UHGV virus genome: UHGV-0297100
Strand: one strand, 5' to 3'
Length of the DNA stretch: 13,232 nt
From: a virus
The translations under genes were made by a program, and so were the position numbers. Under the pieces are notes generated by a model. That model saw nothing but the letters and a program-made list of their open reading frames with translations. It did not search any database and had not been told where the DNA came from. Positions 1 to 10,303 of this stretch are shown one piece after another. Position 1 is the stretch's first letter; the number at the start of each line of letters is the position of its first letter.

Positions 1-145
1 GAACTGCGCCGCAGTAACGATATCCTTCGCCAGGCTTCCGCTTATTTTGCGAAGGCGGAGTTCGACCGCCTCTGGAAAAAATGATGCCACTGCTGGATAA
101 GCTGCGTGAGCAGTACGGGGTCGGACCGCTATGCAGCGAACAATC
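1..145 (+). mobile_element. Truncated IS3-family insertion sequence fragment (IS629/IS3411-like) covering the orfA 3' end and orfB 5' start
   Basis: Frame 1 from the window edge reads ELRRSNDILRQASAYFAKAEFDRLWKK*, a leucine-zipper C-terminus typical of IS3-family OrfA. A second frame starts MMPLLDKLREQYGVGPLCSE at 82, typical of OrfB, with an A-run (GGAAAAAATGATG) at the overlap. The OrfB frame stops after about 30 codons, so the element is truncated near 145. Family assignment is from memory. Confidence 0.65.
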
Positions 146-244
146 AATTATGACGCAGGTATCGTATTAATTGATCTGCATCAAATTAACGTAAAAGCAA
201 CTTCAGATAATACAAATCAGCAACACTGAATATGGGGAAACATT

Positions 245-2687: not shown

Positions 2688-3200
2688 TTAAACGGTATGA
2701 TATTTCATTCTGGCGGCCTCAAAAGCCGCAGCGGCAAGTTCGGCAGTATCATGGTATCCAAGGTTAATACACTTTCCAGACGCATTAATTCTTGCTCTCC
2801 ATTTCCCGTACTTAGCATCCCAAGACACGCCACGGTATCCAGATTTATTATTCTTCTGAATTTTCCTGTTCTGCATATTTTCGGAATGAGTGACAAGACG
2901 AAGATTTGATATCCGGTTATCTGTTCTTACCCTGTTGATGTGATCAATAAAACCATCGGGCATGGTGCCATAAACAATCAACCATGCCAGTCTGTGAGCA
3001 GGGTATGCTTTACCATTAATCATAATCATTAAATACCCATCAGAATTTATTGATGAGCATTTCTTGAAAGCAAAACGAGAGTTCCATGTCAAAGTGGTCC
3101 TCTCTCTTCCCCGCCTCCATCTCCAGTGAAAGTCGCCTGATGATGGATTGTAATCAACAACAGAAAGCACCATTTCTGGCGTTAATTTTATTTCTTTCAT
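2688..3200 (-). CDS. HNH endonuclease with a C-terminal AP2-type DNA-binding domain (homing-endonuclease-like moron)
   Basis: HNH motif region HRLAWLIVYGTMPDGFIDHINRVRTDNRISNLRLVTHSENMQN, followed by an AP2-like segment SGYRGVSWDAKYGKWRARINASGKCINLGYHDTAELAAAAFEAA. RBS AAGG upstream of ATGAAAGAAATA. Appears AT-richer than its neighbours by eye. Confidence 0.8.
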   Translation of the reverse strand: MKEIKLTPEMVLSVVDYNPSSGDFHWRWRRGRERTTLTWNSRFAFKKCSSINSDGYLMIMINGKAYPAHRLAWLIVYGTMPDGFIDHINRVRTDNRISNLRLVTHSENMQNRKIQKNNKSGYRGVSWDAKYGKWRARINASGKCINLGYHDTAELAAAAFEAARMKYHTV

Positions 3201-3387: not shown

Positions 3388-3417
3388 ATTATGGCTAAAT
3401 GGCTAATTGCATGTCAA
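3388..3417 (-). promoter_or_regulatory. Candidate late promoter pR' overlapping the 3' end of Q
   Basis: Minus strand TTGACA (3417..3412), an 18-nt spacer, then CATAAT (3393..3388). The Q stop codon TAG (3397..3395) lies inside the spacer. The position just downstream of Q matches lambdoid pR'/qut architecture. Confidence 0.5.
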
Positions 3418-3913
3418 GGCTTTTAACAGCAACATGCTTAACTTTCTCAACACGTTTACGCATTTTGAAAGCATTTTGCATTGGTTGGTACAAAACAAAT
3501 AACGACGCTTTCAGGATGTCGTCAATTTCGTTTCTACAGGTTGCCAGTGAAGGTTTTCTCCATCCCTCGCCACCACGTCCACACATCTTGCGTGGCTTTG
3601 CAGTCGCGTGATAGTAGGATGCAATTGCTCGCTTAGATGAACCATGAGCGTAGTAGCTGAGGAGGATGCCAAAGGCTTTCTTGTCAATGTACATGACGGA
3701 ATCGACGACCTGAGAAATCAACATTCCATCATCATCATTACACATTGGCCTTGTCATAACTCTTCCCGGCTCTACGCTCTCCATGAACTTCGCTATTACG
3801 CTGCTCATGCGCTTTTCCAGACGACCTGAATAAACCCATGCGCCCCACAGCTCAAGCCAGCCATTCAGCCAATCGTGCTGTTCTTTGGTGAGGTTTAGCT
3901 CTCTTATGCTCAT
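3395..3913 (-). CDS. Q: Late-gene antiterminator Q (Phage_antitermQ family)
   Basis: Motifs WLELWGAWVYSG...TRPMCNDDDGMLISQVV match the conserved ERWGAW...SRP.C.DDD pattern of QuuD-type Q proteins. It directly follows ninH, and its start overlaps the ninH stop (ATGA). Confidence 0.8.
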   Translation of the reverse strand: MSIRELNLTKEQHDWLNGWLELWGAWVYSGRLEKRMSSVIAKFMESVEPGRVMTRPMCNDDDGMLISQVVDSVMYIDKKAFGILLSYYAHGSSKRAIASYYHATAKPRKMCGRGGEGWRKPSLATCRNEIDDILKASLFVLYQPMQNAFKMRKRVEKVKHVAVKSLDMQLAI

Positions 3914-4098: not shown

Positions 4099-4457
4099 AC
4101 GTTCTCCAGTTCGGTGATTTTTATTCCAAGCCGTCCGCCTGGTACTTTCACACCACGAATTACGCGAATGTCATCGAATTGCTCGTCGTCTTCCGCAAAT
4201 CCGGCGTGGATAAGAGAGTCGAGTAAACCTTTCAGGATGTTATCGAGGTCGCGGCGGCGGGAGTCTGGAACGTCTGCGATGACTTTGATGCGGAGCCGTG
4301 ATTTGGTGAAAATATCTAACTTGAGTTGGTGGATGATTTGCTGAACGTCTTTTCGGTATTTCTGGCCTTTATCGCTGATGTAGTATTGGCTTCCCCGTCT
4401 TCGCCAGTAGGTATTCACCGACGGCGGGTATGGAAGCACAAACTGATATTCGTTCAT
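4095..4457 (-). CDS. rusA: RusA-family Holliday junction resolvase
   Basis: 120 aa with MNEYQFVLPYPPSVNTYWRRRG...DVPDSRRRDLDNILKGLLDSL...RLGIKITE, matching RusA signature regions (PDRRRRDLDN). It sits where lambda has ninG. Confidence 0.9.
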   Translation of the reverse strand: MNEYQFVLPYPPSVNTYWRRRGSQYYISDKGQKYRKDVQQIIHQLKLDIFTKSRLRIKVIADVPDSRRRDLDNILKGLLDSLIHAGFAEDDEQFDDIRVIRGVKVPGGRLGIKITELENV

Positions 4458-4744
4458 GACTTAATCTTCCCCTCCTTCAGCAGTATCGCCTGCGTCCTGA
4501 TCACGCCTTCGAGGTGGTAAAGTCTGGCGTCTTTGTTGTCGAGGTTATGGGTGCGTCGGTCGATTTCATCGTGACACGCGCTACAAGCCCATGCGCCGAT
4601 CAGGTCGTCAGGCTTCATTCCCGTTCCGCAAATTCCAGCCATCCGGTAATGTGCCAGAACTGTAGTTTCAGGATTACCATTGCATACGCCGTAAATACGT
4701 ACCTGGCATTCTCTGCCGCGTGCTTCTTTGCGTAGGTTAGCCAT
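4454..4744 (-). CDS. ybcO: YbcO-family protein (DUF1364, putative Cys-rich metal-binding nuclease)
   Basis: 96 aa with ARGRECQVRIYGVCNGNPETTVLAHYRMAGICGTGMKPDDLIGAWACSACHDEIDRRTH, resembling DLP12 YbcO. Confidence 0.75.
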   Translation of the reverse strand: MANLRKEARGRECQVRIYGVCNGNPETTVLAHYRMAGICGTGMKPDDLIGAWACSACHDEIDRRTHNLDNKDARLYHLEGVIRTQAILLKEGKIKS

Positions 4745-6913: not shown

Positions 6914-7204
6914 TCATTGCCTTACCTCCATAAGCGCCCTATTAATAAACGCCGTCATTGGATTTGCACATCCCCACCCCGTACCATCTGGATTTCTTTT
7001 AATTGGCTCCTTCTTCACTTTGCGTTTTGCATAAATAACCGTCTTCCACTTACGCTCAACAACACTCAAATGTCCTTGTTTCACCATATGCCTTGCTGCT
7101 TGAGCGATTCTGTTATTTGGTATTCCGGTGATCAGTGCTAATTCATGTGGGGAGAATTGTTCATGAGTTTTCAGATATTCCAGGATGATTTCTTTTCCAG
7201 TCAC
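6914..7204 (-). CDS. ren: Ren-like protein (winged-helix)
   Basis: 96 aa starting MTGKEIILEYLKTHEQFSPHELALITGIPNNRIAQAA..., resembling lambda Ren (MTGKEAIIHYLGTHNSF...) in sequence, length and position after the replication genes. Confidence 0.7.
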   Translation of the reverse strand: MTGKEIILEYLKTHEQFSPHELALITGIPNNRIAQAARHMVKQGHLSVVERKWKTVIYAKRKVKKEPIKRNPDGTGWGCANPMTAFINRALMEVRQ

Positions 7205-8046
7205 GATCTGCTCCTGTAACTATCCCATGTAAACGCAAGAGTGCACCCGCCGCCATCATTCATCCTGTCAATAACACGCTCACCAATGAATGCAGATAGT
7301 TCATCTTTGCTCTGGTTGCTAATCAGGATTGTTGGCTTCATGCACTCGTAGCGGGTGTTGATGATTTCGAACATGATCATCTTTTCCGCCTCGCTTCCAA
7401 ACTGTACACCAACCTCATCGATAATTAGCAGGTCAGGTTTAGTGAACTGTCGGATCACTTCATCCTCTGTGCGGGTGGAGTTTTTCGACCATGTTGATTT
7501 ATATTCTCTGGCAATTTTCAGCGCCGTTGTGAAAATAGCTGAGCTTTGATGTTCCGTAATTGCGTGCCGGGCGATAGCCAGTGCAAGATGATTCTTTCCA
7601 GTACCAGGCTTTCCACACATAACCAGCCCACCGCCTTTCTGTAACCTCTCAGGCCATTTGCTGGCGTATGCCTGACACACCCTGAGCACTCTCTTTGCAT
7701 CGTCGTTGACTGGCTCGTAGTTCTGTAGTGTGCAACCCTTGAATCGTTCAGGAATATCAAGATTATTCAACAGAAACTCGACATTGCGCTTACGTGATTC
7801 CTCGTCGATTTTAATCTTCTCTGCCTGTAGCCGAATAAGCTTATCTCTCATGCATTCCGGGCATTCGCTAGGTCTTGAGGCAAACTTAATTGGCCCAGTC
7901 GAGTAACGGTTACGCTGCTCAAACTCACCATGTTTTTCACAGATGCCAGTGCCAATTTCTACAGATGTATGCTCGATAGCAATTGGCGGAGAACTCAATT
8001 CTGCAAGTTTTTTCTCCAGTTGGGAGATCTTTTCATCAAGCGTCAT
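7201..8046 (-). CDS. DnaC-like helicase loader (AAA+ ATPase, IstB/DnaC family), replication protein in the P position
   Basis: Walker A GKPGTGKNHLA and Walker B LLIIDEVG. Start taken at MTLDEK..., with GGAG upstream, just after the O stop. Confidence 0.9.
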   Translation of the reverse strand: MTLDEKISQLEKKLAELSSPPIAIEHTSVEIGTGICEKHGEFEQRNRYSTGPIKFASRPSECPECMRDKLIRLQAEKIKIDEESRKRNVEFLLNNLDIPERFKGCTLQNYEPVNDDAKRVLRVCQAYASKWPERLQKGGGLVMCGKPGTGKNHLALAIARHAITEHQSSAIFTTALKIAREYKSTWSKNSTRTEDEVIRQFTKPDLLIIDEVGVQFGSEAEKMIMFEIINTRYECMKPTILISNQSKDELSAFIGERVIDRMNDGGGCTLAFTWDSYRSRS

Positions 8047-8048
8047 GT

Positions 8049-8891
8049 TCACTCCTGCGCCCATGAAGGCATTTCAGTTTGTCCGTAATCTTTGGTGGCA
8101 AAGTTTTCCTGCATAGCTCGATGCTGCGGCCTCGGTTGAGATTTCCCCTTTGGAGTCTTGGGCTCAAAAATCCCCTGCCAACCACTGGCGATGCTCTGGT
8201 TTATAATTTCTTCAGGTGTATATCCCTTCTCCAGACTTCTGCTTAGAACGTTGATAGCCTGAGTGACACTTTGCTTAGACTTGATCGACTTACCTATCTC
8301 CTTGCGATAGGTAACCCACGACAACCATGTTTCTGCTGATAACCAATCAGGCAACTCTGTTTCTAGCGGGTCGAACTTCTGAGAAACTTTTTTGGGGGAT
8401 ATAGGGGGTTTATTAATATTTTCTTTTGTCTTTAAAGAATGTCTTTTGTGTGTCTCTAACTTCGAGACATTGAGTGTCTCTAATTTGGAGACATTTTTTG
8501 TCTCTAACTTCGAGACAAAGTTGCTAACTTGGAGACACTTGCTGAATTGCCACGCAGATACCTCACTGTTTACACCGATTTGATTTCCATCCATAAACAG
8601 GCAATTCATTGAAATCAGTTCTTTTTTAGCCTTGTTAACATTCTGCCTTGACAGTCCTGTTAACTGAGCAATTTGCTCATCGGCTATTCGATCTGTTTTC
8701 TTATTGAATCCATATGTTTTCCGGACGTAGGCCAGCATAACTTTCAACTGGCGAGCGGTTAAATCGGCACTTGCGATAGCTTCCAGCAGCTCGTTAGCGA
8801 ATCTGGTGTAACCATCATCGATATCAGCCACTCTTCGCTCCTGTTCAACAGGTTCACTCTTCGGCAGGTAAAATACTTCAGCAAGGCTCAT
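8049..8891 (-). CDS. O: Replication initiator protein O (lambda O-like)
   Basis: Gene upstream of the DnaC-like loader. The coding sequence contains the origin iterons, reflected in the protein repeats VSKLETKNVSKLETLNVSKLET. Start taken at MSLAEVFYLPK..., with GGAGG upstream. Confidence 0.85.
   Translation of the reverse strand: MSLAEVFYLPKSEPVEQERRVADIDDGYTRFANELLEAIASADLTARQLKVMLAYVRKTYGFNKKTDRIADEQIAQLTGLSRQNVNKAKKELISMNCLFMDGNQIGVNSEVSAWQFSKCLQVSNFVSKLETKNVSKLETLNVSKLETHKRHSLKTKENINKPPISPKKVSQKFDPLETELPDWLSAETWLSWVTYRKEIGKSIKSKQSVTQAINVLSRSLEKGYTPEEIINQSIASGWQGIFEPKTPKGKSQPRPQHRAMQENFATKDYGQTEMPSWAQE
8451..8537. repeat. Replication origin iterons inside O
   Basis: Three near-identical 19-bp palindromic units TGTCTCTAA(C/T)TT(C/G)GAGACA at 8451-8469, 8475-8493 and 8499-8517, with 24-bp periodicity, plus a degenerate fourth at about 8522-8537. 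An AT-rich stretch at about 8395-8450 flanks them. Confidence 0.85.
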
Positions 8892-9522
8892 TTCCAACCT
8901 CCGCATCAAAGCATTGGGCTTCAAGAGACTTAACCATCACCACACTGCCATCTGTATTAATAACTATCGATGAGTTATATTTGCTTATCAGTTGCTTCGC
9001 GTAATCAATTCCGGCGCGAATAAGGAAATTTTTCACCGCAGGAAGATGACCAACTACACTACCCAGACCTTGCTCTATAAGCTCCTCATTAAGATCAAGC
9101 TCATTTTCATGGCGAAAAGAAATGAATGAGTCGTAAATTGCGTATTCTGCCGTCTCGCCATTTCTTTCAGGGCCAACCAGCGCCCTTATTTCATTTAGAG
9201 ATTCAGAAAGATCATTATCTTCAAGCTTGAAAAACTCTCGATTATCACTAAGCCTCTCTTTTGCAAAGGCTTTATGAATGAGTTTTTCATCTGATGCGGG
9301 ATTATTTGAATGAAAGGCTGCTATCACCTTAAATGGCTTAGGAACGCCAGTAGAGGCTGAAATTTCTTTAGCCCTAACTTCTGGTGAATGCTTAGTCATC
9401 CCAATCTTATAAATTCCTGGCATGCACTCATTCGAAAGCACATAAACAAAGCCATTTGATTTAAAATCATCTGGCACCTTCATGCTCTTCAGAACCTGGA
9501 ATTTGTCATTTTCGTATGTCAT
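8878..9522 (-). CDS. T5orf172 / GIY-YIG-like domain protein (moron between cII and O)
   Basis: N-terminal motif GFVYVLSNECMPGIYKIGMTKHSPEVRAKEI fits the T5orf172 / GIY-YIG-like pattern. GGGAG lies six nt upstream of the ATG. AT-rich by eye. Domain call is from motif memory. Confidence 0.55.
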   Translation of the reverse strand: MTYENDKFQVLKSMKVPDDFKSNGFVYVLSNECMPGIYKIGMTKHSPEVRAKEISASTGVPKPFKVIAAFHSNNPASDEKLIHKAFAKERLSDNREFFKLEDNDLSESLNEIRALVGPERNGETAEYAIYDSFISFRHENELDLNEELIEQGLGSVVGHLPAVKNFLIRAGIDYAKQLISKYNSSIVINTDGSVVMVKSLEAQCFDAEVGNEPC

Positions 9523-9554
9523 AATTACTCCCGTGGATTGATCCAGTAATTCCC

Positions 9555-9851
9555 TCAGAATTGCATATCAATTTGCTTAAAATCCTCGGTGGCGGCCGGG
9601 GATTTTTTCTTTGTGATTTCATCAAGCGCATACTTAAAAGCCCTGCTAATCGGACTGATGTCTGATGCCATTCCGAAAGCACACAAGACCGAAGCAATAA
9701 ATCTCCAGTCCGTTCTGCTTATCTTCGATTCATGACAGCCAATCATCTTTGCCAGACCGCGCTGGGTAAGCGTTGACAGGTTGATGAGTAAATCTGTTTC
9801 TGCGCGATCAACGTCGCGCTGTGATAGTTTGCTGTAACTTGTTTGTTCCAT
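9555..9851 (-). CDS. cII: CII transcriptional activator
   Basis: 98 aa ending KKKSPAATEDFKQIDMQF, matching the lambda CII C-terminus (KKRPAATERSEQIQMEF). Located between cro/nutR and the replication genes. Confidence 0.85.
   Translation of the reverse strand: MEQTSYSKLSQRDVDRAETDLLINLSTLTQRGLAKMIGCHESKISRTDWRFIASVLCAFGMASDISPISRAFKYALDEITKKKSPAATEDFKQIDMQF
9584..9611 (+). terminator. Rho-independent terminator antisense to the cII 3' region (oop-RNA-like)
   Basis: Plus strand CCTCGG-TGGCGG-CCGGGG (stem with one G-U pair) followed by ATTTTTTCTTT. It is on the strand opposite cII, within the cII 3' coding region, as for lambda oop. Confidence 0.55.
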
Positions 9852-10232: not shown

Positions 10233-10303
10233 CGTACTTTCAGTACGCATTATGATTGAACTGAAAGTTTTTGCAAGTGCTTTAGTATCGTACTCATGGT
10301 TCA
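10233..10303. promoter_or_regulatory. OR operator region with divergent PR/PRM promoters
   Basis: Perfect palindrome CGTACTTTCAGTACG (10233-10247), plus related sites TGAACT-GAA-AGTTTT (10257-10271) and CGTACT-CAT-GGTTCA (10289-10303, overlapping the cI ATG). Minus-strand PR candidate TTGCAA (10271-10276), about 16-17 nt spacer, CATAAT/ATAATG. Confidence 0.7.

Follow-up and report, generated by a model that had tools for sequence, protein, structure and literature searches.

The palindromic repeat array within the O-family initiator gene of this virus sequence is, with a probability of about 0.9, the theta-replication origin of a lambdoid prophage, built in the manner of ori-lambda and lying in the linker-coding part of its own O gene, as judged from sequence comparison. 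We use "the window" for the whole stretch of DNA that was analysed, 13,232 nucleotides in length. The argument draws on the cis-anatomy of the array, its homology to ori-lambda, the linkage between iteron type and the N-terminal domain of O, the conservation of the iteron arms as DNA, and the DnaC-like gene that lies downstream. By its sequence the element is of a textbook kind, and its iteron type matches neither that of lambda nor that of phi80. Lambdoid origins consist of O-binding iterons and an AT-rich tract in the middle of gene O, with one O dimer bound to each inverted repeat of 18-19 bp (PMC7466680, PMC6022878, PMC3349717), and different lambdoid initiators have been found to carry different iterons inside their own genes (PMC8022706).

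Anatomy of the O gene and its iteron array

The features that make up the putative origin are as follows, with the iterons numbered in the direction of O transcription:

8049-8891, minus strand: O-family replication initiator gene (280 aa; Pfam and TIGR matches)
8550-8834, minus strand: N-terminal DNA-binding domain of O, aa 20-114 (PF04492, Phage_rep_O, 124 bits; TIGR01610, 109 bits)
About aa 115-165 of O, minus strand: O linker with the iterons plus the AT-rich tract (repeats at aa ~119-147)
8519-8537, minus strand: iteron 1, first in the direction of O transcription, half-degenerate; aligns with lambda ITN1
8499-8517, minus strand: iteron 2, perfect palindrome TGTCTC-N7-GAGACA; aligns with lambda ITN2
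8475-8493, minus strand: iteron 3, perfect arms; aligns with lambda ITN3
8451-8469, minus strand: iteron 4, perfect palindrome abutting the AT-rich tract; aligns with lambda ITN4
8409-8450, minus strand: AT-rich tract, presumed DNA-unwinding element (42 bp, ~19% G+C), adjoining iteron 4 on the promoter-distal side
8394-8408, minus strand: C-rich motif CCCCCTATATCCCCC (O sense), bounding the AT-rich tract and encoding a Pro-rich part of the linker

The first-pass annotation had named an O gene as the host of the array, and the N-terminal homology bears this out, as aa 4-114 of the protein share 48% identity with residues 5-115 of lambda O in addition to the PF04492 match at 124 bits. Protein comparison revealed no similarity to lambda O in the C-terminal half. 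A sequence search of the PDB with O returned only marginal matches, to the winged helix-turn-helix domains of CRP/FNR regulators (E about 0.06), and there is therefore no solved relative. The single-sequence AlphaFold2 model of O was too poor for a fold search (pLDDT 48, pTM 0.27); within this low-confidence model, the only feature of note is a helix-helix-helix-hairpin secondary structure in aa 46-106, which counts as weak support.

Inspection of the sequence, TRF, a repeat finder and pattern scans all agreed on three perfect 6-N7-6 palindromes of the form TGTCTC-N7-GAGACA on the plus strand, together with a degenerate fourth unit, and the earlier count of three 19-bp units plus one degenerate copy is thus confirmed. 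The plus-strand sequence at 8451-8469 is TGTCTCTAACTTCGAGACA and that at 8499-8517 is identical to it, while 8475-8493 reads TGTCTCTAATTTGGAGACA, with two central differences from the other perfect units. The degenerate unit at 8519-8537 (AGTTGCTAACTTGGAGACA on the plus strand) has an intact GAGACA arm and three mismatches in the other arm; in the O sense it reads TGTCTCCAAGTTAGCAACT, where the promoter-proximal arm has been kept and the distal one has diverged, and this half-degenerate form is kept across relatives. The consensus of the four dyad-symmetric 19-bp units is (T/A)GTCTC-N7-GAGAC(A/T). A period of 24 bp had been proposed for the array as a whole, which holds for the three perfect units but not for the fourth, as iterons 1 and 2 are only 20 bp apart from start to start, giving a spacing of 20/24/24. 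The perfect palindromes are separated by gaps of 5 bp, with 1 bp before the degenerate unit, and a tract of five to six A residues lies between iterons 2 and 3. When the window was randomised 2000 times with a first-order Markov model, three palindromes of the 6-N7-6 form with the same arms never fell within 100 bp, so that chance can be excluded for the array; even a single TGTCTC-N7-GAGACA was found in only 1 of 2000 such random windows.

The array lies in frame within the coding sequence, between the N-terminal and C-terminal domains of O, and its translation in the minus-strand open reading frame is FVSKLETKNVSKLETLNVSKLET, in which VSKLET occurs three times, just as the earlier reading of the repeats as VSKLET units in the O linker had it. 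The warning that a repeat finder might take the array for a tandem repeat also proved apt, given that TRF reported a 24-bp repeat in 3.0 copies at 8446-8517. A CRISPR array is ruled out by the 5-bp gaps, the in-frame site within a coding sequence, and the lack of any cas-like open reading frame in the window.

The AT-rich tract follows iteron 4, where the O-sense sequence reads CACAAAAGACATTCTTTAAAGACAAAAGAAAATATTAATAAA. The tract is A-rich on the O-sense strand, and its start is the conserved ACACAAAAGACA. The lowest G+C content of any 40 bp is 0.175, at 8410, and 8409-8450 is the fourth least stable 50-step segment of the 13-kb window. Of the AT-rich flank that had been described beside the repeats, 8409-8450 (~19% G+C) therefore stands, but 8394-8408 is a G-rich motif on the plus strand (GGGGGATATAGGGGG) and falls outside the AT block. 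In many O genes with iterons of other types, the AT-rich tract is succeeded by a motif resembling CCCCCTATATCCCCC. The start of the tract is also widely shared, with ACACAAAAGA(C/A)A common to lambda, HK97, the P22-like phage Emek, Sf101 and ES18, and with ACACAAAAGA present after the array in 41 of 43 GTDB loci among the loci listed; in phi80, the junction at the start of the AT-rich tract differs from the ACACAAAAGA type.

The replication module and its neighbourhood

Three further features of the early region are as follows:

7201-8064, minus strand: DnaC-like AAA+ helicase-loader gene (287 aa), overlapping the end of O by 16 nt
8878-9522: T5orf172 gene (GIY-YIG superfamily), joined to the 5' end of O
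10249-10276, minus strand: pR-like promoter upstream of cro (consensus match only)

The product of the loader gene matches PF01695 (IstB_IS21) at 66 bits, PHROG 50 ("DnaC-like helicase loader"), and the NCBIfam DnaC family NF005931 at 154 bits, which is under the equivalog cut-off, and it matches Escherichia coli DnaC in PDB entry 6qel with E=5e-32. The surrounding genes are those of a lambdoid phage. A cI-like repressor on the plus strand is followed on the minus strand by cro, cII, the T5orf172 gene, O and the loader, and transcription through cro-cII-T5orf172-O presumably comes from the promoter-like sequence at 10249-10276. After the loader, the minus strand carries a Ren-like gene, NinB, YbcO, RusA, Q, an HNH gene, endolysin and Rz, and at the other end are N and a gene for superinfection exclusion (PHROG: "inhibits SieB"). 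Megablast placed the segment in E. coli prophages, in 119 of 5426 complete genomes, and also in phages N7 (99%), CurroJimenez_Bas106 and mEpX1. An Rfam scan of the window found only an IS3-type ALIL element at 39-138, and none of its families matched at the origin.

The T5orf172 gene has co-opted the conserved pO/oop-O start motif. Phages N7 and mEpX1 are without a T5orf172 gene upstream of O, and in an Enterobacter prophage an unrelated T5orf172 domain is located in frame within the O linker, just upstream of the iterons.

Descent from a true origin could also leave an inactive relic, if O, the loader or pR were impaired or the prophage truncated, and this we regard as very unlikely. Beside the lysis genes, from window position 1 to about 190, lies an IS3-family fragment that carries an ALIL frameshift element, so the prophage may be defective, and the extra T5orf172 gene has displaced both the ordinary cII-O junction and the first 15 or so codons of O. 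Nevertheless, O and the loader are both intact open reading frames, 98-100% identical to those of many viral contigs, and the isolated phages mEpX1 and CurroJimenez_Bas106, the latter of which has the same T5orf172-O arrangement, share the origin segment at 100% identity.

Conservation of the iteron arms and their linkage to the O N-terminal domain

We examined the distribution of this iteron type in two collections. In IMG/VR, we looked for exact matches to two adjacent TGTCTC-N7-GAGACA units and recovered 66 contigs, in all of which the array has the same orientation, lies in a long open frame and has the same AT-rich start. The array lies about 95-151 codons into the frame in all but five of these contigs, where the open reading frame is cut by the contig end. 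Four of the 66 have one extra iteron (4+1 units), and conversion between units was seen in one. As the retrieval pattern forces two perfect iterons, this set was left out of the conservation statistics, for which we used the protein-retrieved GTDB set together with the window and phages Pm34 and Pocitis76. The GTDB set comprises 80 loci from one-genome-per-species contigs, retrieved by N-domain alignment alone. With this protein-only retrieval, loci whose N-domains are 58-91% identical keep the arms at a strict 24-bp phase, and they are found in Dryocola, Erwinia, Pantoea, Tatumella, Xenorhabdus, Proteus, Morganella, Providencia, Arsenophonus and Phlomobacter. TGTCTC-type arms also accompany one Halomonas N-domain that is 51% identical. 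The arms of other GTDB clades are TTAGC/GCTAA (as in HK97), TGTCAC/GTGACA (as in Sf101), TGTCCC/GGGACA, and TTACC(C/T)/(A/G)GGTAA.

The iteron profile was built from 50 iterons at 17 loci found without any DNA pattern (GTDB loci plus Pm34 and Pocitis76). At arm positions 2-6 and 15-18 there is little or no variation, with the same base in at least 49 of 50 copies, while the central iteron positions and the positions between iterons vary freely and the spacer wobble positions are free. We then compared codons across 16 genes, a set that leaves out locus L086, which has a 1-nt indel in the array. Six of eight arm codons are invariant, versus only one of 41 degenerate N-domain codons with an invariant residue (Fisher p=1.3e-5), and none of 12 four-fold sites in the N-domain is invariant. 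Among the arm codons, GTC (three) and GAG (two) are always invariant, and ACA is invariant in one of three. This synonymous-site test, which rests on eight arm codons, is the one that separates constraint on the DNA from constraint on the protein; the two are otherwise partly confounded because the arms also encode Val-Ser and Glu-Thr.

These data make it extremely unlikely that the array is a protein-coding tandem repeat and nothing more, in which VSKLET repeats form the linker, the DNA has no function in cis and the palindromy is incidental. Such a reading would be in keeping with the plain 24-bp repeat in three copies reported by TRF, with units that are in frame and encode VSKLET three times, and with the finding that copy number in relatives changes by whole in-frame units. 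However, a protein repeat has no need of dyad symmetry, and a cluster of this kind was seen in 0 of 2000 random windows. The central residues change (K/N/S and L/P/S/A) while the arms stay fixed, the wobble bases of the arms are frozen (6/8 codons) while synonymous sites in the N-domain are saturated, and the array occupies a position homologous to that of the lambda iterons, which were defined by experiment. The iteron arms are under selection as DNA, over and above what coding would require.

The iteron type is linked to the N-terminal part of O. Among the IMG/VR contigs and GenBank phages, at least four types of C-domain are found attached to the TGTCTC array with its N-domain (67-100% identical), and the genes downstream of O of the TGTCTC type are DnaC-like (of two divergent sorts), DnaB-like or lambda-P-like. 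Likewise, an HK97-like C-domain and helicase can be found with either TGTCTC or TTAGC iterons. As the same array occurs with such varied C-domains and loaders, the iterons evidently travel with the N-domain, and the mosaic joint is the AT-rich/linker region. Within the N-domain, arm type tracks a motif at about residues 80-89 of O better than it tracks overall identity, and at least eight arm types each have a helix motif of their own, including the following:

SRQNVN: arms TGTCTC (window and relatives, including the 51%-identical Halomonas copy)
PRQKVN: arms TGTCAC (Sf101 type)
SRKAVN: arms TGTCCC (locus L109)
HHTHVC: arms TTAGC (HK97 type)
PVKRCN: arms TCCCTC (lambda and ES18)
SDTHVS: arms TTCCCG (phi80)

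The motif falls at the start of the third helix in the helix-helix-helix-hairpin unit of the low-confidence AlphaFold model, and because that model is unreliable (pLDDT 48) its assignment as the recognition helix is tentative. It may be that the iteron specificity of at least eight origin classes can be read, as from a "code", in helix motifs of the SRQNVN type.

It is barely credible that the palindromes are instead operators of another regulator, an intrinsic terminator of the antisense strand or an mRNA structure that modulates translation of O: a scan did report a terminator-like hairpin with a T-run on the plus strand at 8472-8496, and the O-sense RNA of 8440-8545 folds better than shuffled sequences (z = -4.5), but any set of palindromes linked by A-tracts would give both signals automatically, the stem of the hairpin is short and the centroid RNA structure is unfolded, the arms co-vary with the O N-domain motif and with no other DNA-binding gene, and the lambda iterons have the same properties, yet are O sites.

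If the array is indeed the origin, its mode of action can be sketched from the lambda paradigm and the comparative data. In lambdoid initiators, the N-terminal part of O binds DNA and the C-terminal part binds P, with a flexible linker between them, and assembly of the O-some destabilises the AT-rich tract (PMC7466680, PMC6022878, PMC3349717). By analogy, dimers of the winged-helix-like N-terminal domain would bind each iteron here, with the helix that carries SRQNVN probably reading the GTCTC arms. The bound iterons would be wrapped into an O-some, which would put strain on the neighbouring AT-rich tract at 8409-8450 and open it, and the A-tract between iterons 2 and 3 may aid bending. Opening would be helped by supercoiling, and probably also by transcription from the pR-like promoter. 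The O C-domain would then recruit the phage DnaC-like ATPase carrying host DnaB, the part played by P in lambda, so that the helicase is loaded where the DNA has opened. The contact between the C-domain and the loader is one that we infer from the adjacency of the genes and the co-occurrence of C-domain and loader types.

For annotation, the array would be better recorded as a rep_origin with predicted O-binding iterons than as a tandem repeat or CRISPR-like array. The relation between arm type and N-domain motif is independent of the loader, and tabulated as above it could serve as a simple predictor of replication-specificity groups among lambdoid prophages, which in turn points to possible ori-based interference between them. 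The comparative table also locates the mosaic joint at which the "origin recognition" module meets the "helicase delivery" module. As for the T5orf172 gene, there is a slim chance that it is not a random moron and instead represents a selfish or accessory element, nuclease-like in character, with O/ori modules as its target or site of action; if so, it might home to such modules or attack the origins of competing lambdoid phages.

Comparison with ori-lambda and other origins

A close counterpart is ori-lambda, which occupies nt 39034-39160 inside gene O and has annotated iterons at 39034, 39054, 39078 and 39101; its anatomy has been described previously and was used for our comparison (PMC3349717, PMC7466680). 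The first-pass annotation had likened the array to the architecture of this origin, and the MAFFT alignment upholds the likeness, placing the four units in register with ITN1-4 and aligning the AT-rich tracts as well, with ACACAAAAGACA shared. In both, the origin lies in the linker between the N- and C-domains of O, downstream of pR-cro-cII, and consists of four hyphenated-dyad iterons of ~19 bp with A-tracts between them, followed on the promoter-distal side by an AT-rich tract of ~40 bp that starts with ACACAAAAGACA; in lambda, the iterons are followed by CACAAAAGACACTATTACAAAAGAAAAAAGAAAAGATTATT. The spacing is 20/24/23 in lambda and 20/24/24 here, and the shorter step of 20 bp from ITN1 to ITN2 is therefore found in lambda also.

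The two origins differ in specificity and in partners. The arms are TGTCTC/GAGACA here and TCCCTC/GAGGGA in lambda, and a pattern scan of the lambda ori region found neither TGTCTC nor GAGACA. The rep-lambda specificity type, in which lambda O recognises ATCCCTC...GAGGGAT, is ruled out by these arms. Where lambda has PVKRCN as the putative recognition motif, the window has SRQNVN, and the N-domains are only 48% identical. In place of P, the downstream gene encodes a DnaC-like AAA+ ATPase, and the C-domain of O is unrelated to its lambda counterpart. The window has its C-rich motif in the place of the palindrome that lies to the right of the AT tract in lambda.

The 166-bp origin segment is 99.4-100% identical between the window and phages mEpX1, CurroJimenez and N7. 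It is 89% identical in the Hafnia phage Pocitis76, which has the same iteron arms, and in the Proteus phage Pm34, also with the same arms, the match covers no more than 64% of the segment, with 79% identity. The position of the array within O is the same in all five phages (N7, mEpX1, CurroJimenez_Bas106, Pocitis76 and Pm34). The pairing of O with a DnaC-like loader is common to N7, mEpX1, CurroJimenez and Pocitis76, whereas in Pm34 the same iteron type is joined to a lambda-like C-domain and a P-like loader. O itself is annotated in the GenBank records of mEpX1, N7 and CurroJimenez. The records of mEpX1, CurroJimenez, N7, Pocitis76 and Pm34 carry no rep_origin or iteron annotation, and we found no description of a phage iteron of the TGTCTC type, or of the mEpX1 replication module, in the literature searched.

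The nearest other specificity class is the origin of the Sf101/SEN22/mEp043 type (TGTCAC/GTGACA), which differs by one base change per arm. It shares its architecture and AT-rich start with the window, but its N-domain is about 55% identical and has the motif PRQKVN, and the gene downstream encodes a toprim primase-helicase. The origin of phi80 was considered because Pm34 annotates a "replication protein 15". It has four annotated gp15 binding sites inside the O-like gene 15, just as the array here lies inside O, and the phi80 type is ruled out by its arms (TTCCCG/CGGGAA) and an N-domain that is only 37% identical; the start of its AT-rich tract differs as well. The origins of the Stx phages 933W and P27 have six iterons of the lambda type with lambda-like O and P (PMC7466680), and they provide a precedent for variation in iteron number within one type, the arrangement here being 3+1. 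The array would leave the textbook picture of the lambdoid origin unchanged.

A T5orf172 gene between cII and O

We found that the interval between cII and the initiator gene O is occupied by a nuclease-like gene, with two further elements close to its start:

8878-9522, minus strand: T5orf172/MUG113 gene (GIY-YIG superfamily), 214 aa, between cII and O
9520-9547, minus strand: conserved lambdoid pO/oop-5' motif ACTGGATCAATCCACGGGAGTAATTATG, with one mismatch (chance expectation 0)
9579-9606, plus strand: terminator-like hairpin within cII, on the strand opposite to the pO/oop-5' motif

The end of the T5orf172 gene overlaps the start of O by 14 nt, and the pO/oop-5' motif lies before the ATG of the T5orf172 gene, not before that of O. 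The hairpin inside cII is compatible with a putative oop-like antisense RNA. The coliphages N7 and mEpX1 do not have the T5orf172 gene, and the homology of the window to both stops at about 8846, roughly at O codon 15. Copies were found in the coliphage CurroJimenez_Bas106 and in a third of the IMG/VR contigs that carry two adjacent TGTCTC-N7-GAGACA units (22 of 66), and because these are 98-100% identical, they point to a single cassette lineage.

An O homologue with an internal T5orf172 domain

A T5orf172 domain also occurs within an O homologue itself:

L110 2483-3604: O homologue, 373 aa, in a prophage of Enterobacter sichuanensis WCHECL1597

Here the domain lies in frame at aa 134-216 (Pfam, 33 bits), with the N-domain on one side of the insertion point and the iterons on the other. 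It is followed by iterons of a type unlike that of the window and then by the usual ACACAAAAGACA tract, while the C-domain is 58% identical to that of the window O, and a DnaC-like gene is again found downstream. The protein appears to be an initiator that carries a nuclease-like domain internally.

Other nuclease-like genes and an IS3-family fragment

2688-3200, minus strand: inserted gene for an HNH endonuclease carrying an AP2 DNA-binding domain, which separates Q (3395-3913) from the lysis genes
4454-4744, minus strand: YbcO-family putative nuclease, in the nin region
1-190, plus strand: IS3-family transposase fragment (Rfam match at 39-138)

The IS3 fragment comprises the C-terminus of OrfA and a truncated start of OrfB, together with a frameshift pseudoknot of the ALIL type (75.9 bits). 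As it adjoins the Rz/endolysin genes, lying just past them, this side of the prophage may have suffered an interruption or a truncation.

Iterons and associated motifs in O

8625-8654: short sequence motif opening the putative recognition helix, O aa 80-89
8394-8408: C-rich motif CCCCCTATATCCCCC (O sense), directly after the AT-rich tract

Across loci, iteron arm sequence is better predicted by the aa 80-89 motif (SRQNVN, PRQKVN, SRKAVN, HHTHVC, PVKRCN, LPHKCS or SDTHVS) than by overall N-domain identity. Iteron copy number is plastic: four IMG/VR contigs (L007, L016, L028 and L050) have one additional TGTCTC unit, and at least nine TTACC(C/T)-type units are present at about 2800-3030 of the Kluyvera sichuanensis locus L115. 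The O frame of L086 (Morganella psychrotolerans) is shifted by one extra nucleotide between iterons; either a pseudogene or a sequencing error could account for this.

Variants of the C-rich motif, such as CCCCCTTACCCCC and CCCCTAAATCCCC, occupy the equivalent position in O genes with other iteron types at many loci, and the versions in HK97-like and P22-like O genes make up an inverted repeat, CCCCC...GGGGG.
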